The notes under the pieces are model-generated. The model made no database searches and was not told the DNA's origin. It worked only from the letters and a program-made list of their open reading frames with translations. 7,950 nt of DNA from positions 1 through 7,950 of the IMG/VR virus record IMGVR_UViG_3300029508_000049; one strand, 5' to 3'. A program made the translations under genes and the position numbers. Origin of the DNA: a virus (taxonomy: Duplodnaviria; Heunggongvirae; Uroviricota; Caudoviricetes). Positions 1 to 7,950 of this stretch are shown here, piece after piece (positions within the stretch are counted from its first letter, which is position 1; the number at the start of each line of letters is the position of its first letter).

Positions 1-155
1 ATCCAGCGATATTCTGCCTGGGTGTGTTCACGCGCAATGAAGAACGTACAACCGGCTATCGCCCCGTAAGCCCAGTTCCCGGTAAAAAGACCAATCAGTA
101 GCTGCGCAGCCACAGCACAAAGCGCATGAAGGAAAGGTGTTATATCCATTTTCAT
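1..155 (-). CDS. Partial ORF (first 51 codons only) for a small hydrophobic, probably membrane, protein; continues beyond the window start
   Basis: Hand translation of the minus strand from ATG 155-153 (alternative ATG 149-147 with better spacing to a TAGGA motif): MKMDITPFLHALCAVAAQLLIGLFTGNWAYGAIAGCTFFIAREHTQAEYRW.. with no stop before the window edge. Missing from the ORF track, presumably on length. Hydrophobic stretch consistent with a transmembrane helix. Identity not recognised. Confidence 0.35.
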   Translation of the reverse strand, partial: MKMDITPFLHALCAVAAQLLIGLFTGNWAYGAIAGCTFFIAREHTQAEYRW

Positions 156-161
156 CCTACC

Positions 162-185
162 CAATAAAACGGGGCGCTCGGCCCC
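162..185 (-). terminator. Rho-independent terminator after the tail fibre operon
   Basis: Minus-strand RNA: GGGGC-CGAGC-GCCCC hairpin (171-185) followed by GUUUUAUUG (162-170), beginning 7 nt after the orf346 stop. The plus strand also has an A/T-rich tail (ttaatattattt), so it could act bidirectionally. Confidence 0.55.
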
Positions 186-191
186 TTAATA

Positions 192-1232
192 TTATTTAGA
201 CGCAAGCGCCGCCTCAATTACAGATAATCTTTGTCTTAATTCTGCGTTTTCTTCTTCCAGTGCTGTTATTCTGTCGTCTGACTCTCTGGCTACCTGAACA
301 AGCAAGCCAGTAACACCAGAATAATCTACTGTGTAATAACGTTCACCTTCTTCACCTTCCGATCCGCTCGCACCGTCCTGATATTTCATTGCGGAACCTA
401 CAACTTCTGGGATTGCTTCCAGAGCTTCCTGTGCAATGACACCAGCATAGGGCATACCGTTTTCTTTAAGCGTGTATGTATAGCCGTTCATTTTACGGAT
501 GCGGTCGGTTGCATTATCGATCACCTGAATGTTGTCTTTCAGATCCCGGTCGGAATGCTGGTTAAATGCGGTGGCATGACATGCACCATTAACGCTTAAC
601 ATATAGGTGTTATCGGTATTTTTCTGCGCATAGAACATATAAGCGCCACCATCAACACCGACTTCATAAACAACAGGACGGCTGGAATTTCCCCATAATA
701 ACGTCGACACACCAGAATACGCCGTACCTTGCGTGTTTAGTGTCATGGTCGACCCGTGATTAGCATATTTGATCTGCAATGAGTCTGTATTATCAAACTT
801 AATAAGCGCGTTACTTCCCCGCACACCATACGACATGAGACAGTTCCCCATCTTAAGGTAACCATCACTGCCTGGAAAAATTAAAGTTCCTCCGTAAAGA
901 TCACTAAAGTCCCAAAAGATACCTTTTGTCCCGTTATGTGTGACGATCCTCGTCATTGTATCTTTAGTACCATCAATATTTTTTCTGGTATATATGTCAC
1001 TATAAGCGTTTTCCGTTTCACCAGTCTTATTTGACAAATGCAGCTTACCGCTGAATATAGTTCCAGTTGTTGGCAATGTTTTTTGATCATAGATTACATT
1101 GCAATAACCATTCCATGTTGTTTTATTGTCTACATAAGATTTTGTTGCGTAGCTTCCTTGATCGTTTTTTAATTTGCTAACGTCGGATTTTAGCGTTTTG
1201 ATGTCATCAGGAATTACTGTCGATGTAGCCAT
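192..1232 (-). CDS. Second tail fibre / fibre-tip protein with C-terminal intramolecular chaperone auto-processing domain (peptidase S74-like)
   Basis: 346-aa ORF, ATG 1232-1230, stop TAA 194-192. N-terminal part has a tail-fibre-type motif (SYATKSYVDNK) and is Gly/Thr/Asn/Tyr-rich as in beta-rich fibre tips. C-terminal about 120 aa (from ..NQHSDRDLKDNIQVIDNATDRIRKMNGYTYTLKENG..GVIAQEALEAIPEVV..YTVDYSGVTGLLVQVARESDDRITALEEENAELRQRL) shows the hallmark Ser...Lys dyad spacing (S227, K232) and GxIAQE / VDY motifs of endosialidase/T5 pb1-type intramolecular chaperone domains. Confidence 0.85.
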   Translation of the reverse strand: MATSTVIPDDIKTLKSDVSKLKNDQGSYATKSYVDNKTTWNGYCNVIYDQKTLPTTGTIFSGKLHLSNKTGETENAYSDIYTRKNIDGTKDTMTRIVTHNGTKGIFWDFSDLYGGTLIFPGSDGYLKMGNCLMSYGVRGSNALIKFDNTDSLQIKYANHGSTMTLNTQGTAYSGVSTLLWGNSSRPVVYEVGVDGGAYMFYAQKNTDNTYMLSVNGACHATAFNQHSDRDLKDNIQVIDNATDRIRKMNGYTYTLKENGMPYAGVIAQEALEAIPEVVGSAMKYQDGASGSEGEEGERYYTVDYSGVTGLLVQVARESDDRITALEEENAELRQRLSVIEAALASK

Positions 1233-1241
1233 TTTTCTTCC
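1233..1241 (-). promoter_or_regulatory. Shine-Dalgarno region for the 346-aa fibre gene
   Basis: Minus-strand sequence TGA-GGAAGAAAA-ATG: a GAGGAAG purine-rich motif overlaps the stop of the acidic ORF, 7 nt upstream of the ATG at 1232. Implies tight operon organisation fibre > orf93 > orf346. Confidence 0.5.
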
Positions 1242-1523
1242 TCACATCCAGCCACGAAGTTGATGCTCAACAGCAACCACGTATTCATCGAATAATGACG
1301 ATATTTGCGAATCATTAATGATGCGCACGTTTACAAAATATCCGTCTTCCTTAACACATACCGGTTCGCCATCTTCAGTCAGTTCTCCGGTTTCTTTGTA
1401 CACGTTACCTATCACGTCGATAAGAATATCATCCTGCATCGACTCATCATCATAATAGCCAATACTCTCCATAAAGGCCGAAAAGTCGGCCCTGTCTTCA
1501 AATTTGAGTGTTAAATCTTTCAT
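1242..1523 (-). CDS. Hypothetical small, highly acidic protein (93 aa), translationally coupled to the tail fibre gene; function unknown
   Basis: ATG at 1523-1521 overlaps the fibre stop in a TAATG arrangement; stop TGA at 1244-1242. By my count 22 D/E against 7 K/R in 93 residues. No family recognised by eye. GC about 40%, matching the flanking low-GC module. Confidence 0.55.
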   Translation of the reverse strand: MKDLTLKFEDRADFSAFMESIGYYDDESMQDDILIDVIGNVYKETGELTEDGEPVCVKEDGYFVNVRIINDSQISSLFDEYVVAVEHQLRGWM

Positions 1524-3895
1524 TAGATTGACTCCCCCACCTGAGCATCAGTCAATGCCTTGTGCCATATTCTGAAATTCCTGACATGACCAAATAAATG
1601 ACGTAACCCGGCTGTAGTCTGGCCTCCAATACGGATAATTGCGGTGTTCTGAATACAGGACCATGTGGTTTTTGTTTCGCTGGATATATGCCCGTTACTT
1701 ACTGAGCACGTAGACTGCTCTGACTTTACACGCATCCCCATAACCATTTTTTCAAGCGATGCGTTTTCGTTTACCCGTCTGTTAGCTCCTCCAATATCGC
1801 AATAAGGAAATCCGTCGTAATCTGTTGAACGACCGAAGCCAAGAATAATAGCCGCTCCGGTTTGATGACCGCCGGTATCAAAAACACGTGGCGCTGCATT
1901 TGGCGTTTTATACCAGTTCTTATGTACCTCACAAAGAACCGTAAAAGGAAGATTATAAAGATTATTCTTAATTGGAACTGTAACTATATCGCTTGCGCGG
2001 GTCGCCGCCGTCGCTCCTGATATAATAAAAGATGATACACAAGGCCCATCTTCTACTTGTGGGGTGGCCAGATAAATATAGTCACCAGATACGGTTGCCC
2101 CGCTCTGCTTAGGAGAATACTGTATCTGAGAGCCTATTTTTAACTCCCCATCAATTGCCTGAATTGTTGCCTCTGCAAAAATCCATCCGGTAGCTTCGTC
2201 CTTTCTGACTCTCGCTGTAATCCTTGAGGCAGCACCGCCTGTCATATTAATTTCAAGCGCTTGTGTATCAATATACGCATCACCAAGAAAAGTTGTTGCG
2301 CTACCGTCATATTTATCAAACCGGATACGCAACCTTACCTGCAGTTCTGTTTTAAAACGACATGAGGTTGTCACGTGTTTATTATCGCCTGAGACATCAA
2401 CTGACTTTGTTGCAGCAATTGATGCCATATTAATGGCTGAGGTTTGCCCAATCAGAGAATCGTTGCAGACAAACTTTCCATAGGTAAAACCAAAATTATC
2501 CGTCCCTGTTTCGGGCACATCCATATTTGACGATCGCCCCCAACTGGCAGGGCTTTCCGAATTGAGCATGTAGTTTGTTCTTTGCCCCTCAATAAGCAGG
2601 CCATCACGTTCAAATCGTGGCTCGTCAATGGCAGCCTCTGTCAGCACACCAGATTTGTTAATATAGGTTGCTTTCGATGCACGTTTAAACTTAACAATCT
2701 TGTCGCCAGGCATCGTTATTTCATCGTCACCAATAACAATTTTTTTATATGATGGCGAAAAGCCCGTAATCATATCCAGCGAATCGTTAAATGGTATCCA
2801 CACATCAGGCAGCGGCTGTAAGACATATTTATACGGCTCCGCAGCCTGGCTTGCGTACTCTCTGGCTGCATCTTCGCTTGCTTTAGCTGCCGTCTGGCTT
2901 GCTGCCGATGCTTTCGCTGAGTTCGCAGCCGCTGTTTCGCTCACCTTTGCGTTGGTTTCACTGGTTTTTGCTGCTTTTTGACTGTTAGCTGATGCAGTGG
3001 CAGAAGCAGCCGCCGCGCTTGCAGAACTGGCTGCGGCACTCTCGCTTTGGGCCGCTGCATCCTGACTGCTTTTCGCCGCAGTTTCACTGGCTTTGGCATT
3101 CGTTTCGCTGGTCTTCGCTGCCGTCTGGCTGGACTTTGCGTTAGTTTCACTCGTCTTCGCAGCTTTCTGGCTGTTAGCCGCAGCAGTTGCTGATCCAGCT
3201 GCTGAAGTCGCAGAACCGGCTGCCGCGCTCTCGCTTTGGGCTGCTGCAACCTGGCTGTTTTTTGCCGCAGTTTCACTGGCTTTGGCATTCGTTTCGCTGG
3301 TCTTCGCTGCCGTCTGGCTGGACTTTGCGTTGGTTTCGCTCGTCTTTGCGGCTGTCTCGCTGTTTTTCGCGTTGGTTTCTGATTTTTTGGCTGCTGTCGC
3401 GGAGTTTGCCGATGCAGTCTTTGAGGTCGCTGCCGCCTGTGCACTATTAGCTGCATTCGTTTCTGAGGTTTTCGCCGCGTTCTTTGATGATGCCGCTGCA
3501 GTTTCGGATTTCTTTGCCGCCGCTGCGCTCTGAGAGGCGGCTTCGGCGTTGCGTGCCACTTCTTCCACCATTGCCTCAAAACGACGCAATGCCTCCGGCA
3601 TGACATCATCTTCCGTCATGGCACCGAGAAAATCATTCAGCGTACCTGGTCTGGAACCTTCATAGACGGTAATGGTCCCGGCATGTGAAGGCGGAAAACC
3701 TTCAACCAGCAGGGTGACGCTGTACTGGCCATACTCAACATCCATGCTGTAACGCCCGGCTTCATCAGGATTTTCAGAGGCCAGCGTGTTCACCACCACA
3801 GTGGTACTGTTACGTTTTGCTTTCAGCTGGATTGTGCAGTTCTGTACCGGTTTTCCTGTGCCGTCTTTCAGTACACCAGAAATCTTTACTGTCAT
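1523..3895 (-). CDS. stf: Side tail fibre protein (lambda Stf-like N-terminal anchor, repetitive Ala-rich shaft, divergent low-GC distal domain with a possible LamG/ConA-like C-terminus)
   Basis: The ORF track opens at a GTG (3901) giving MNMTVK..; I place the start at the in-frame ATG 3895-3893 (MTVKISGVLKDGTGKPVQNCTIQLKAKRNSTTVVVNTLASENPDEAGRYSMDVEYGQYSV..), which matches the lambda Stf N-terminus (MAVKISGVLKDG..) as I recall it. Stop TAA at 1525-1523. The middle is low-complexity A/S/T/K/E-rich with tandem repeats. The C-terminus ..LFGHVRNFRIWHKALTDAQVGESI resembles the terminal motif of LamG-like jelly-roll domains. Confidence 0.88.
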   Translation of the reverse strand: MTVKISGVLKDGTGKPVQNCTIQLKAKRNSTTVVVNTLASENPDEAGRYSMDVEYGQYSVTLLVEGFPPSHAGTITVYEGSRPGTLNDFLGAMTEDDVMPEALRRFEAMVEEVARNAEAASQSAAAAKKSETAAASSKNAAKTSETNAANSAQAAATSKTASANSATAAKKSETNAKNSETAAKTSETNAKSSQTAAKTSETNAKASETAAKNSQVAAAQSESAAAGSATSAAGSATAAANSQKAAKTSETNAKSSQTAAKTSETNAKASETAAKSSQDAAAQSESAAASSASAAAASATASANSQKAAKTSETNAKVSETAAANSAKASAASQTAAKASEDAAREYASQAAEPYKYVLQPLPDVWIPFNDSLDMITGFSPSYKKIVIGDDEITMPGDKIVKFKRASKATYINKSGVLTEAAIDEPRFERDGLLIEGQRTNYMLNSESPASWGRSSNMDVPETGTDNFGFTYGKFVCNDSLIGQTSAINMASIAATKSVDVSGDNKHVTTSCRFKTELQVRLRIRFDKYDGSATTFLGDAYIDTQALEINMTGGAASRITARVRKDEATGWIFAEATIQAIDGELKIGSQIQYSPKQSGATVSGDYIYLATPQVEDGPCVSSFIISGATAATRASDIVTVPIKNNLYNLPFTVLCEVHKNWYKTPNAAPRVFDTGGHQTGAAIILGFGRSTDYDGFPYCDIGGANRRVNENASLEKMVMGMRVKSEQSTCSVSNGHISSETKTTWSCIQNTAIIRIGGQTTAGLRHLFGHVRNFRIWHKALTDAQVGESI
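2882..3394. repeat. In-frame tandem repeat, 189-bp period (63 aa), about 2 full copies plus degenerate flanking partial copies, inside the tail fibre shaft
   Basis: DNA block gtttcactggctttggcattcgtttcgctggtcttcgctgccgtctggctggactttgcgtt occurs at 3081 and again at 3270 (offset 189). Protein copies: KTSETNAKSSQTAAKTSETNAKASETAAKNSQVAAAQSESAAAGSATSAAGSATAAANSQKAA and KTSETNAKSSQTAAKTSETNAKASETAAKSSQDAAAQSESAAASSASAAAASATASANSQKAA, with a shorter SETNAK/SETAAK sub-periodicity. Confidence 0.75.
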
Positions 3896-3906
3896 ATTCA
3901 CCCCAC

Positions 3907-3933
3907 AAAAAAGCCCGCCTGAACCGGCGGGCT
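3907..3933 (-). terminator. Rho-independent terminator downstream of lom, immediately upstream of the tail fibre gene
   Basis: Minus-strand RNA: GCCCGCC-GGUUCA-GGCGGGC (perfect 7-bp GC-rich stem, 3913-3919 paired with 3926-3932) followed by UUUUUU (complement of the A6 run at 3907-3912). Starts 27 nt after the lom stop and ends about 12 nt before the fibre ATG. Confidence 0.65.
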
Positions 3934-3959
3934 GTCATAACACTGTCTTACCTGGCTAA

Positions 3960-4583
3960 TCAGAACTTATAACCGACACCCACGATGAAACCGTCAGTGC
4001 GCCAGTCGCCACTGCCGGAACCTTCATAAGCAAGGTCAATAACCACCGTCTCTACGGGACTGAACTGAATCCCGGCATTCCAGGCCGGCGACAGATGACG
4101 CGCAGTATGGCCATCACTGGCGGTGGTGGTCTCCTTCACATACCCCGGTTTCACTTCATCATGCCGGTAATCCTGAACACTGTCAGACCAGCGGGTGTAC
4201 GCCATCCCGGCCATGCCATAGAGACTGACCCGCTCACTGAGCTGCCAGACAGGGCCGGCCATCAGACTGACATAACGACCGCGCAGACTTTCATGATGGA
4301 AGGTATTTTCACCCGTCTTCATCGTGTCACTTTTCTTCACCGATGCATAACTCAGCGCGACAATGCCGCCCAGGTGATCCGTGAACTCATAACGGTATTT
4401 CACGTTAATCCCTTTTAAATCACCTGCACGCGCACCGGTACCGGACAATGCCGGTACGCCGCCCGGGTGAACCTGAGCATATCCCACGGAAAATGCACCG
4501 TGTCCGCTTTCAGCCTGTGCAGGAAGGGAAATGCCTGTCAGCAGTGCGGTCCAGAATAAAATGGCTCCGTATAAATGTCGCAT
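3960..4583 (-). CDS. lom: Lom/Ail-family outer-membrane beta-barrel protein (lysogenic-conversion 'moron')
   Basis: 207-aa ORF, ATG at 4583-4581 preceded by GAGAGG about 7 nt upstream. N-terminal signal peptide MRHLYGAILFWTALLTGISLPAQA followed by AESGHG. Strong similarity to lambda Lom as I recall it (GINVKYRYE, HESLRGRYVS, AYEGSGSGDWRTDGFIVGVGYKF), and a C-terminal aromatic residue (..YKF) typical of outer-membrane barrels. Confidence 0.93.
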   Translation of the reverse strand: MRHLYGAILFWTALLTGISLPAQAESGHGAFSVGYAQVHPGGVPALSGTGARAGDLKGINVKYRYEFTDHLGGIVALSYASVKKSDTMKTGENTFHHESLRGRYVSLMAGPVWQLSERVSLYGMAGMAYTRWSDSVQDYRHDEVKPGYVKETTTASDGHTARHLSPAWNAGIQFSPVETVVIDLAYEGSGSGDWRTDGFIVGVGYKF

Positions 4584-4607
4584 GATGACCTCTCGTTTTC
4601 AGTCAAT

Positions 4608-4631
4608 AAAAAAGGCACCTCCTGAGGTGCC
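4608..4631 (-). terminator. Intrinsic-terminator-like hairpin plus U-tract between J and lom (minus-strand sense)
   Basis: Read on the minus strand: GGCACC(UC)-loop-(GA)GGUGCC stem (4614-4631) followed directly by UUUUUUAUU (complement of the A-run at 4608-4613). Lies in the 67-nt J-lom spacer, ending about 25 nt before the lom start codon. Confidence 0.5.
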
Positions 4632-4650
4632 CGTCCGGGTTAATAAACCG

Positions 4651-7600
4651 TCAGCTGATACTGATCCCTGCCGTGGATTTTTTCATGACCACAACCAGTA
4701 AATCACTGATGTACGTTGTCGGCGTCCAGTTGTTCGCACCGGCCGACGACACATTAAACGTCAGGGTGACATGACCCCGCCCTGCCGGCATATCTATCAC
4801 CGATGAGAACACCCGGCTGACATCAGTTGCCGGTTCATGGAAAATCTCAACCCCGTTCTTCAGCACCTGCAGCTTACAGGTGGAATACCAGTACGACTGC
4901 TGATTCGGGCTGTTGAAATTCTGGTGTTTCGTCCCGCGAAACAGTACCGGGGGAATGATGATCTGCCGGTCGAAGCCCTGGTCATCGTAAACTGTGACGG
5001 TTACCGTCCCGCTGGCATAACTGTTATTCCGGGGAAAGGCTTTCCCCACCGTCTTCACCAGGTCGCCTTCAATCTGGTTTGCAGACAGTTTCCCTCTGAT
5101 GACACAGTTCTCGTTAATGGTGACATTATTGAGCGTGCCGGTATTCGCGGTAATTGCTCCGCTGATATCCGCGTTCCTGGCTGTCAGCTTCCCTTCCGGC
5201 GTCAGGGAAAACGTCGGGGGGTTGCCGGATGACGTGATACTCACCGCAAACAGTCGCTTCAGGAACACGTCGTTCATGAACAGCTGATTCCCCTGCGCCA
5301 CAAATAACGGCGTGCTGTTGCCGTTCTCCGGATTTATCATCGCGATACGGTCAGCCAGCAGCAGTATGTTGCTCAGTGGCTGGCCATCAGTATCCTCAAT
5401 CCCTGCACCAATCCCGGCCACATAGGGAATGCCGTCTTTCGTTTTTTGAACCTTCAGCATGTACAGCGCAGCCAGGTCATCATTTGTGTCCTTCTGCACG
5501 CGCTGTATCTGCTGAATGGTGGCGCTCTGGTCTTCCAGCGTTTTACTGACCGTCTGTGTGATTTCATTGCGGGTTTCGGTGATGGTGGTCTTCATCTCCG
5601 CCATCTCATCCGCAAGCTGGCTGTTGTCTATCAGCTCCCACAGCCCCTGAGCCAGATGCAGTTTTCCTATTTTTTCCCGAAACAGCCCCAGATACCCTTC
5701 TGCATCATTGCTGGCCCGGCCACTGGCTTCCACAAAAGCAGATTTCCCCACCAGGTTGACGCTGCGCACGTAAAACCAGAAATCCTTCCCGGGCTTAATG
5801 TGCGGGCCGGATACACTCCACTGACTGCCGGTCCCCAGATAACGGGCAGAGGTTTCCACCTGAGATGTGTCTGCGATTTTTGCCTCCGAAAACCAGAATT
5901 CAAACTGTACCGTCGGATCATACACCGCCAGCACCGGTACCGCCGTTATCTGAAAATACCCCGGCGTCAGTTCAATGGTGGCGGGTACCGCAGGTGCATT
6001 AATCCTGAACGTGGTGGTGGCCGGTTCGCCCTGCTGGCCATAACTGTTAATTGCCCTGACTGTCAGGGTGTATTCCCCGAGCGGCAGACCACTGAAACGA
6101 TGCTCTGTATCCGCAGTGATGGCGGTGGTCACCAGACGGCTGTCTTCTCCGCTTCCGCTGGTCAGGCGCAGACTGAAGCGCACACCCTTCACCACCCGCG
6201 GCGTGTCCCATTTCGCCTGTGCCAGATACTGACCGTCAGCCGCGCTCACCTCCACCGTCAGGTGCTGCACTGCCGGTGGAATAACGCTGTTCAGGGTGCC
6301 TGACTGCGGCTCAAAGCTGGCCCCGTTATCCACGATGGCTTCTTTTTCCGGTACGTGCTGCACTGCCGTGATGGCAAAGGTGCCGTCCGTGTTTTCCCGG
6401 ATGGAGACACAGCGGAACAGGCGACGACGCAGTGACGGCAGGGAGAGTCCCCATACACCGTATGTCTCCACACCATCAGGCAGGGTGCTGACCTGTATCC
6501 GGTCCGGCGCGGGGTGTGCAGTGATGGCCACGCTCACCGGCTTACCGCTGCCGTTAATCAGGTTCACCGCCGATGTACCTGTCTCCGGCAGGGTAACCTC
6601 ACGGTCCAGCGTCAGGGTGCGGGTGGCAGCATCAATGGACAGGACACGTCCGCCGGTCATAGTCCCGGCATAGTCGTTATCACAGATTTCAATAATGTCA
6701 CCCGGTGTGTGACGCAGCCCCTGTGACCCGAGCGTGAAGTCCACCGTCTGCGTTTCCAGCAGTTCGGTCTTTATCACCCACAGACCTGCACGGTGAGCCT
6801 GACCGCGGCTGGTACAGCCAAACGCATCCATCTTCAGCAGATTGCGTCCGTAGCGCAGTATGGCTTCCGTGTCTTCCACCAGTTCCGTGGAGGTCTGCCA
6901 GCCGTTCTGCGGGTCGGTGTAATTCACCTCCACCGCCGTGTGCCGGTCCTTCAGGGCACTGAAGCTGTAGCGGAACCCCACGCCGTTATCATCCACCACC
7001 ACATCGCTGTTGGTGTACGGCCACACCACATCCGACGGGCGGTCCTGAACGAACGTCAGCGTCTGACCGTTCCATACCGGCATACAGCGCATCGCAGAGC
7101 AGAAATCACTGAGAACGTCCCACGCCTTACGCTGTTGTGCCAGGTACGCATTAAAGGTCATCCGCGGCTCTGTGCCCCCGAAACCATCCGGGACCGTCTG
7201 GTCGCAGTACTGCCCGATGGCATACAGCGCCCACTTGTCCACATCCGCCGCCCCCAGACGTTTTCCCATGCCGTAGCGCGGGTGAGTCAGCATGTCCCAC
7301 AGACACCAGGCCGGATTGTTGCTGTATGCCGGTTTCAGACTGCCGTCCCAGATACCACTGTACGTGCGTTTTTCCGGGTCATAGTTTGACGGCACCTGGA
7401 TGATGCGACCGCGGATATGGTAGTTCACCGTCATCTGCTGGCCGCCGAACTGCTCCGCATCCACCTGCAGCCCCACAATGGCCGTGTTCGGGTAGCACTG
7501 TTTCACATCGATGATTTCGGTGTATGACGACCACAGCGTCTTATTCTGCAGCTGGTCCGTGGTGCTGTCCGCCGTCTCCCTGACCATCCGGATGTTAAAG

Positions 7601-7950
7601 GGCCGGGGAGGCAGATTATCCAGAATCACCGAGGCCAGGAACTGTGAGGTGGTCTTGCCGTTAATGGTGACGTCCTTTTCTGTCACCCAGTTACCGTTAC
7701 GCTGTAACTGAATCAGCAGGCGGACGGATGCCGGGTTACGGTCACCCTTTGAGGTGGTCTCCACCAGTGACTGCACCCCGAAGGTAACCCGCAGGCGGTC
7801 AATGTTCGCGGACGTAATGGTGCGCGTCACCGGTTTTGCCTTCGTCACTTCCACGCCCAGTCCGGTTTCAGCTCCGGAGGACTCAAAGCCTTCCGGTGGT
7901 GTCTGCTCCTGCTCCCCGGCACGCCAGACCGCGGTCACACCGTGTATCAC
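4651..7950 (-). CDS. J: Host specificity / tail tip attachment protein J (central tail fibre), partial: N-terminus lies beyond the window end
   Basis: Uninterrupted 1099-codon minus-strand frame running to the window edge; stop TGA at 4651-4653. The translation matches lambda J as I recall it along its length (e.g. [144 protein letters not shown]). The window begins about 60 residues into the lambda protein, so the leading M in the ORF track is a GTG at the window edge, not the true start. GC about 58% on a hand-counted 60-nt sample (7261-7320). Confidence 0.95.

Follow-up and report, generated by a model that had tools for sequence, protein, structure and literature searches.

ORF93, a small acidic protein encoded with one type of tail fibre end in unrelated phages, as a candidate fibre accessory protein

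The ORF93 locus

The DNA stretch considered here, called the window, corresponds to the whole of positions 1 to 7,950 (7,950 nucleotides, nt) of the IMG/VR virus record IMGVR_UViG_3300029508_000049, a member of the Caudoviricetes. Its genes belong to a lambdoid tail operon, of which they are the distal end, and are all on the minus strand, as are the features described below unless otherwise stated. Between the side tail fibre gene, stf, and a second gene encoding a distal tail fibre lies an open reading frame (ORF) of 93 codons, ORF93, which is the subject of this study. An original prediction, made from the sequence of the window, had described its product as an uncharacterised, very acidic protein produced in translational coupling with the fibre gene. 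A fibre chaperone, an adaptor between the two fibres or a DNA-mimicking anti-defence protein had been proposed as candidate roles. As described below, ORF93 accompanies a single type of fibre C-terminus in unrelated phages, a situation best accounted for by a role as a fibre accessory protein.

Coupling to stf is visible in the sequence TAATG, where the TAA stop codon of stf (1523-1525) and the ATG start codon of ORF93 (1521-1523) have one base in common. A Shine-Dalgarno sequence, GGGGGAG (1532-1538), is located within the end of stf, 8 nt ahead of this ATG. The coupling originally proposed is therefore well founded. At the other end of ORF93, the Shine-Dalgarno sequence of the next gene, TGAGGAAG, begins with the ORF93 stop codon, TGA (1242-1244), and the ATG of the distal fibre gene (1230-1232) is found 9 nt further on. 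Translational coupling thus extends to all three genes. No promoter-like or terminator-like site was found between stf, ORF93 and the 346-residue fibre gene, the first good terminator being that at 171-185 (Table 1). The 9-nt spacing, together with a stop codon embedded in a Shine-Dalgarno sequence of the TAAGGA type, also occurs in T5-like, Nonagvirus and Drexlerviridae loci, and the corresponding sequence in AKFV33 is TAAGAGG.

The GC contents of the distal fibre gene (0.417), of ORF93 (0.411) and of the C-terminal module of stf (0.443) are close to one another. Those of the N-terminal part of stf, of lom and of J are 0.545, 0.548 and 0.575, respectively. The window thus shows a sharp step in GC content between positions 192-2812 and positions 2813-7950. 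The stf module, ORF93 and the distal fibre gene are one low-GC mosaic block, common to lytic T5-like, T1-like and Queuovirinae phages.

Table 1. Features of the window, ordered from the beginning of the tail operon segment to its end
Feature	Position	Strand	Remarks
J, tail tip protein	4651-7950	-	cut by window edge
lom	3960-4583	-	Pfam Ail_Lom
stf, side tail fibre gene, 792 amino acids from GTG	1523..3901	-	Pfam phage_tail_N, PHROG 1419, NCBIfam GTA_spike_fiber
stf C-terminal module, residues 364-792	1526..2812	-	always co-occurs with ORF93
Last 173 residues of stf, weak LamG / concanavalin-A-like end	1526..2044	-	Laminin_G_3 below threshold; conserved tail
Coupling signal: Shine-Dalgarno GGGGGAG 1532-1538 and TAATG 1521-1525	1521..1538	-	read from sequence
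ORF93, 93 amino acids, acidic, PHROG 1361	1242..1523	-	ATG start; ORF and translation
ORF93 stop TGA fused to Shine-Dalgarno TGAGGAAG, with 9-nt spacer	1233..1244	-	read from sequence
Distal fibre gene, 346 amino acids, C-terminal intramolecular chaperone	192..1232	-	Pfam Peptidase_S74, PHROG 4563
Distal fibre N-terminal peptide MATSTVIPDDIKTLK, motif M.T.T.IP.DI..LK, candidate docking peptide	1188..1232	-	once per locus
Intrinsic terminator closing the stf-ORF93-distal fibre unit	171..185	-	GGGGCCGAGCGCCCC then GTTTTATT
Start of membrane protein gene, about 97 amino acids, two-transmembrane (MDITPFLHALCAVAAQ...)	1-149	-	cut by window edge

Association of ORF93 with a fibre module

To follow ORF93 beyond the window, 80 IMG/VR loci encoding the C-terminal module of stf were collected. 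In 78 of them, the contig runs past the fibre gene and the presence of ORF93 could be tested. An intact ORF93 homologue follows the module-bearing fibre gene in all 78, overlapping it by 1 nt or 4 nt, and the reading frame proposed at the outset is thus a conserved one. In all related loci, the fibre stop codon and the ORF93 start codon overlap by 1 nt or 4 nt or directly abut.

The ORF93 homologue also starts at the fibre stop codon in phage 21 (lambdoid), VogelGryff (Seuratvirus), VSe12 (T5-like) and nomo (rV5-like). The fibres of these four phages resemble the window stf in their last ~430 residues only (44-69% identity), and the genes downstream of their ORF93 homologues are unrelated. The same arrangement is found in IrisVonRoten, AKFV33, tunus (Drexlerviridae), JenP2 and BRET (Nonagvirus) and Ioannina (Dhillonvirus). 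In AKFV33 and BRET, where the module is ~36% identical, the small protein was missed by tblastn and caught by a hidden Markov model of the family. The arrangement holds for metagenomic members of the family at 25-35% identity. The fibre upstream of such distant members is 27-31% identical (loci L091 and L092) or has at least a laminin G (LamG)-like tail (L090). In total, 11 phages and 2 distant metagenome contigs were inspected one by one, all with this arrangement. Overall, the pairing spans lambdoid, Drexlerviridae, Dhillonvirus, Queuovirinae, T5-like and rV5-like phages. A single outgroup was considered, gp56 of the Rhodobacter phage RcWaterboi, a spike fibre of the gene transfer agent (GTA) type without the LamG-like end, and no ORF93-like gene follows it. 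Taken together, these data show that ORF93 and this fibre module invariably go together in phages unrelated to one another.

In the rV5-like phages, the homologues (nomo, L004 5001-5333) have 110 residues. They match the family over the first ~80 residues only, and have an insertion and a different C-terminal third. In these phages, the protein may have been naturally dissected, with a fibre-binding part on one side and a variable part on the other.

The ORF93 protein family

The translated ORF93 contains 22 aspartate and glutamate residues for 7 lysine and arginine residues. The computed net charge is -15, in agreement with the value of about -15 first estimated, with an isoelectric point of 4.05 and a mass of 10.7 kDa. 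The protein is a member of PHROG 1361 (E = 2.5e-46, residues 1-93 aligned on profile positions 1-92 of 92), a family of unknown function, and a second, weaker match is phrog_18574. No Pfam or NCBIfam match was obtained at E <= 1. When the family profile was compared to the PDB, only noise was returned, with E = 0.19 for a telomerase p19. Comparison of ORF93 with the S74-bearing fibre using hhalign gave a probability of 0.3%, meaning that the two are unrelated.

A confident structural model was calculated with AlphaFold2 from 19 family members (predicted local distance difference test score, pLDDT, of 88). Its secondary structure elements follow the order beta-alpha-alpha-beta4-alpha and the predicted fold is a small alpha/beta sandwich. 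This model gave no informative fold match and no PDB chain resembles it. A Foldseek search against BFVD retrieved uncharacterised phage proteins only. As neither profile searches nor Foldseek led to a known family of any function, ORF93 is still to be regarded as uncharacterised.

The family can be recognised down to 25% identity with its length and motifs kept, and its net charge ranges from -4 to -18 (27 members). Across 34 distinct ORF93 alleles, the median pairwise ratio of non-synonymous to synonymous substitution rates (dN/dS) is 0.36. Hypervariable segments are absent, and the variable patches are residues 9-13 and 72-84. ORF93 is more conserved than the fibre module that precedes it, with 90-98% identity versus 69-84% in the same loci. 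A search of 1.84 billion representative proteins, carried out exhaustively with phmmer, yielded only 51 clusters of the family and no fusion to a larger protein, two long matches being due to low complexity.

Regarding hosts, the family occurs in Escherichia and Salmonella phages and in Escherichia genomes; in scans of genome collections, only Escherichia ruysiae and E. whittamii were matched. Of 5,426 complete E. coli genomes, 988 carry the 93-residue subtype, in as many as 5 copies each; the annotation is invariably that of a hypothetical protein, and the gene adjoins a tail fibre gene. A tblastn search with ORF93 retrieved 181 phage records of very different kinds. Among the phage database records MG0656xx ('Campylobacter phage') and OR84xxxx/OR85xxxx ('Listeria phage', 'Salmonella phage S.Inf'), those with a Campylobacter or Listeria name carry fibre modules of E. 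coli T5-like or rV5-like phages with up to 100% protein identity. The Campylobacter- and Listeria-named records are probably mislabelled or contaminant assemblies, which inflate the apparent host range of the family.

Homologues are annotated as 'hypothetical' everywhere except in IrisVonRoten ('tail fiber protein'). No functional assignment for the family was found in the literature on the BASEL I and II collections, DT57C, AKFV33, Eligo base editing, or the Pam3 and Alteromonas chaperones. The BASEL II article discusses the flanking fibres only and not the ORF93 homologue, and the fibre type of the window stf is not used in the Eligo base-editing papers.

The partner fibre and its C-terminal module

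The N-terminal part of stf matches Pfam phage_tail_N (residues 3-133, E = 6e-68) and the protein belongs to PHROG 1419 (tail protein). The true start of stf is probably the ATG at 3895 (MTVKISG...), not the GTG at 3901, given that neither the Pfam nor the PHROG alignment includes residues before residue 3. Further downstream, NCBIfam GTA_spike_fiber is matched at residues 436-636, and residues 405-651 are homologous to the head spike fibre Rcc01080 of RcGTA (PDB 6TB9, E = 5e-7). On the last 173 residues, the Pfam family Laminin_G_3 is found with E = 0.0014 and 19.2 bits, under the gathering score of 27.6. From these comparisons, the module would consist of a sandwich resembling carbohydrate-binding modules (CBM) and GTA head spikes, followed by a weak LamG-like end.

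The protein terminates with the sequence RHLFGH.RNFRIWHK.LTD.Q, which is near-invariant across all partner fibres, distant ones included, and the LamG-like ending is still recognisable in the most distant of them. An AlphaFold2 model of the monomeric module is confident for module residues 87-256 only and not for the last 173 residues. In IrisVonRoten, the homologous Gp22 is described as a proximal fibre with a C-terminal galectin-like domain (PMC11990801). Judging from these sequence relationships, ORF93 is tied to a putative lectin-tipped fibre end. Finally, stf has no S74 domain according to Pfam, and no Tfa gene is present in the window.

The distal fibre and its N-terminal peptide

The 346-residue product of the gene following ORF93 belongs to PHROG 4563 (tail fibre, E = 7e-209). 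It carries a Peptidase_S74 domain at residues 227-278 (E = 6e-14), with an HSDRDLK motif at residue 226. A second fibre gene is usually found 9 nt past the ORF93 homologue. Its product measures 234, 245, 340, 346, 348, 388, 557, 574 or 583 residues and the bodies differ, being S74-type, T-shaped or others.

Among close relatives, these distal fibres share their beginning. The motif M.T.T.IP.DI..LK opens the distal fibre of the window and that of eight phages belonging to five groups, and is found nowhere else in those loci. The corresponding peptides are MATSTVIPDDIKTLK in the window, MVTKTVIPTDITKLK in IrisVonRoten, MTTYTNIPQDITKLK in AKFV33 and MATVTVIPSDITKLK in tunus. Residues 1-26 of the distal fibre are restricted to loci that also encode ORF93 and the stf C-terminal module, while residues 27-72 correspond to a general fibre module also present inside single-chain fibres such as LtfA of DT57C. 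According to nucleotide identity profiles, breakpoints of recombination lie within the final 60-120 nt of stf and, in the distal fibre gene, ~20 codons past its start. Since breakpoints occur on either side, ORF93 and the peptide form a constant cassette between two variable modules.

In two loci, the distal fibre gene is broken shortly after the N-terminal peptide. In Ioannina (L089), this occurs at 3769-3810, where MVTKTNIPADIRR is followed by a stop codon and then by another frame, and in VSe12 (L003, 5289-5480) the gene is split. These interruptions would be explained either by sequencing errors or by a true inactivation of the distal fibre in phages that retain the small gene.

Loci without a distal fibre

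Phage 21 keeps an ORF93 homologue although it is devoid of a distal fibre. When its whole 42.9-kb genome was scanned, no distal fibre, no other fibre gene, no Tfa-like gene and no docking motif were found. In prophage loci of the phage 21 type, also without a distal fibre, ORF93 is intact in 14 of 14 cases, with a dN/dS of ~0.4. Two lineages of this type have 63% protein identity, with dN = 0.28 and saturated dS. In the rV5-like phage nomo, no docking motif is present within +/-5 kb of the ORF93 homologue. ORF93 thus persists where there is no distal fibre, and its function would be independent of it.

In phage 21 and the 14 prophage loci, the gene directly following the ORF93 homologue, after the same 9-nt spacer, encodes the membrane protein whose gene starts just past the fibre-operon terminator in the window. 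In phage 21, it is CPT_21_24, a 'putative membrane protein'. Because this gene adjoins the ORF93 homologue in the phage 21-type loci, the distal fibre gene appears to have been inserted. The membrane protein itself could be a moron of the superinfection-exclusion type.

A proposed trans-acting partner of the stf tip

The comparisons presented above strongly support the view that ORF93 is a fibre accessory protein occupying the slot of Tfa or gp38. Among the candidate roles first envisaged, that of a fibre accessory protein has gained from the synteny with the module, and that of a DNA-mimicking moron is not supported in view of the operon structure, the GC content, the occurrence in lytic phages and the predicted fold.

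More precisely, ORF93 may be a trans-acting assembly chaperone or cap for the tip of the proximal fibre, to which we assign a probability of roughly 45%. Physical binding of ORF93 to stf, the site of this binding and the chaperone activity are inferred here. In such a model, the overlap of stop and start codons would ensure that ORF93 is made alongside stf in roughly equal amounts. The protein would then bind the C-terminal end of stf, that is, the LamG-like part terminating in the conserved tail. It would thereby aid the folding, the register and the solubility of the three stf chains, and would possibly remain as a transient cap. Each fibre would have its own helper, the S74 domain acting in cis for the distal fibre and ORF93 acting in trans for the proximal one. 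Indeed, stf has neither S74 nor Tfa, whereas the distal fibre has S74. On the reasoning that every trimeric fibre needs a nucleating helper, of which stf has only ORF93, a chaperone is favoured. The persistence of ORF93 where the distal fibre is missing argues in the same direction, and so does the family-wide acidity, many small dedicated chaperones being acidic.

Several known systems may be compared to this arrangement. Tfa of lambda, G of P2, U of Mu (Caudo_TAP) and gp38 of T4 are likewise encoded immediately 3' of the fibre gene with tight coupling, and the Tfa-type proteins are likewise tied to the C-terminal receptor-binding part of the fibre. Because the window stf has no Tfa, ORF93 fills the Tfa slot. 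However, ORF93 shows neither sequence match (Pfam and NCBIfam, E <= 1) nor fold match to the Tfa-type proteins, and the lack of similarity to Tfa noted at the outset is confirmed. It is also about half their size, as previously remarked, lambda Tfa having 194 residues. Moreover, its covariation with the receptor-binding domain is weak, and a second fibre gene follows in most genomes.

A closer mechanistic parallel may be found in gp25 of Pam3 and in the chaperones of the Alteromonas phages V22 and A5. As described in the reports, these are encoded by a separate small gene after the fibre gene, embrace the distal end of the trimer in a 3:3 ratio, drive its folding and may stay as a cap (PMC9608196, PMC10579305). 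This 'transient cap' mechanism is the one proposed for ORF93. The structures and clients differ. The chaperones are made of a beta-sandwich with trimerising helices, or are S74-like, whereas ORF93 has no likeness to S74 or to a PDB entry; their client fibres end in TNF-like or knob tips, whereas the client of ORF93 would have a CBM/LamG-like end. Peptidase_S74 domains, as in the K1F endosialidase or T5 pb1, serve the same need, the C-terminal nucleation of fibre trimerisation. Unlike ORF93, which is a polypeptide of its own and without homology to them, they are covalently attached and self-cleaving.

Some observations weigh against a chaperone. Cognate chaperones usually co-vary with the receptor-binding domain of their fibre and ORF93 does not. 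In locus L048, the module is 95% identical to that of the window and ORF93 only 50%. Conversely, in L073, the C-terminal half of the fibre is 59% identical and ORF93 91%. Such weak covariation fits a chaperone only if ORF93 reads the invariant C-terminal tail of stf. In addition, lectin domains of the jelly-roll type often fold unaided. Finally, the strict location of ORF93 between two fibre genes, like the conserved peptide that opens the distal fibre, fits a structural joint equally well. It should be noted that a chaperone and a joint are compatible, as a retained cap could become a docking platform.

A possible joint between the two fibres

In the second model, ORF93 would be kept on the virion as a structural joint, seated on the proximal module and capturing the N-terminal peptide of the distal fibre. 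This is possible, if less probable than a chaperone. The motif peptide would be followed by a coiled coil, and one constant proximal fibre would carry interchangeable distal fibres. An explicit version of the model, a plug-and-play system in which a joint of ~10 kDa on the LamG-like end clamps the 15-residue M.T.T.IP.DI..LK peptide of any distal fibre, is to be taken as similarly tentative.

This model accounts well for the gene organisation. All three genes are translationally coupled, and fibres with differing bodies but the same motif are encoded 9 nt after ORF93 in the window and in the eight phages. It also gives a meaning to residues 1-26, restricted to loci having ORF93 and the module, and to the behaviour of ORF93 and the peptide as a constant cassette. 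ORF93 identity tracks the distal N-terminus (Mantel r = 0.76) over the module (r = 0.47). In the rV5-like phages, where no motif-bearing distal fibre is encoded nearby, the C-terminal third of the homologue is a different one. In IrisVonRoten, Gp24 attaches to the proximal fibre Gp22 (PMC11990801, legend of Fig 12B), and the ORF93 homologue, Gp23, lies between the two.

Yet, phage 21-type lambdoids keep ORF93 under constraint with a distal fibre nowhere in the genome. The support brought by the covariation is weakened because the Mantel correlation is dominated by one closely related group and because the relationship is not strict: between L067 and L088, ORF93 is 80% identical and the first 24 distal residues only 42%. 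In the distant locus L092, the N-terminus of the fibre encoded next is unrelated, and physical linkage alone could give the cassette pattern. Virion proteomics of AKFV33 is limited to four gel bands. Regarding the adaptor originally envisaged, the conserved distal N-terminal peptide does suit docking, but the maintenance of ORF93 under purifying selection in phages without the downstream fibre does not.

Proximal fibres bearing a distal one are known in DT57C (LtfA-LtfB), phiEco32 (gp14-gp15) and T4 (gp35/gp36). In these systems too, a conserved N-terminus attaches and the body varies. However, no small protein is encoded between the fibre genes of DT57C and phiEco32, the closest of the branched fibres studied, where docking is thought to be direct without any small adaptor, and ORF93 is unrelated in sequence to the joint proteins of DT57C, phiEco32 and T4. 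In DT57C, N-terminal strands of LtfA insert into the beta-sheets of a small protein, LtfC (PMC10713586). By analogy, such an insertion is a plausible model of how ORF93 would hold the M.T.T.IP peptide, with the difference that LtfC is the tail collar and not a fibre-tip protein, as ORF93 would be.

Unlikely readings: adhesin, moron or chance reading frame

A third idea would be that ORF93 is a tip adhesin, itself contributing to receptor recognition as gp38 does. The gp38 proteins of T2, T6 and S16 occupy the same gene position, ORF93 always accompanies a receptor-binding module, and it has two variable patches. But ORF93 is more conserved than the surrounding receptor-binding parts (90-98% identity where the module has 69-84%), which renders this idea very unlikely, and a median dN/dS of 0.36 without hypervariable segments points the same way. 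Furthermore, the fibre already has CBM-like lectin domains, and strong acidity would presumably be unfavourable for the binding of anionic lipopolysaccharide or capsule.

Even less credit can be given to a DNA mimic or another anti-defence protein carried as a moron beside the fibre genes. The small size and the net charge of -15 would suit such a protein, lambdoid phages are known to carry morons downstream of their fibre genes, and both lom and the small membrane protein gene are nearby. Against this, ORF93 lacks a dedicated promoter or terminator, its first codon overlaps the stop codon of stf and its GC content is that of the fibre genes around it. It occupies the same slot of a late structural operon in strictly lytic T5-like, rV5-like, Drexlerviridae and Queuovirinae phages as in temperate ones. 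No match was found with PADLOC, the library of which contains defence proteins, not anti-defence proteins. Mimics of the Ocr or ArdA type, which are elongated helical arrays of carboxylates expressed early, were considered and rejected, since ORF93 is modelled as an alpha/beta sandwich, belongs to a late operon and gave no match to a mimic.

Lastly, ORF93 is short and no source annotates a function for it, as might be expected of a chance ORF in the spacer between fibre genes, but this reading is effectively refuted by the conservation data (78/78 copies intact, dN/dS < 1, length and motifs conserved in a family reaching 25% identity), to which a pLDDT of 88 and a correctly placed Shine-Dalgarno sequence may be added.

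Other features of the window

On the upstream side, lom is flanked by two strong terminator-like hairpins on the minus strand (3912-3933 and 4613-4632), each made of an 8-bp GC-rich stem followed by a T run. Such bracketing is typical of the morons that lambdoid phages carry between J and stf. Within stf, positions 2945-3364 of the minus strand contain a tandem repeat of 189 nt (63 residues) in 2.2 copies that are 85% identical, encoding a shaft rich in alanine, serine, threonine and lysine (AAKTSETNAK...). The repeat yields shadow ORFs at 2941-3609 (minus strand) and 3093-3533 (plus strand), as well as spurious weak NCBIfam matches (DnaX, SMC).

Conclusions

The ORF93 family is a new family among the fibre accessory proteins encoded behind a fibre gene. 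Together with the fibre C-terminus that precedes it and the candidate docking peptide that follows, it makes up a three-part module that is widespread and was not described as such before. This module can now be annotated across genomes, and relatives of ORF93 exist in six or more phage groups that serve in therapy and biocontrol.

If ORF93 is an assembly factor, lectin-tipped fibres would need its co-expression, which bears on lambda-based delivery particles and on host-range swaps. If it is a joint, it would represent a new class of small fibre-to-fibre adaptor with a portable docking peptide. Through recombination at the three-gene cassette, distal receptor-binding fibres could then be traded among lambdoid, T1-like, T5-like, Dhillonvirus and Queuovirinae phages, and the 15-residue peptide with ORF93 would constitute a ready-made tag to attach new receptor-binding fibres.

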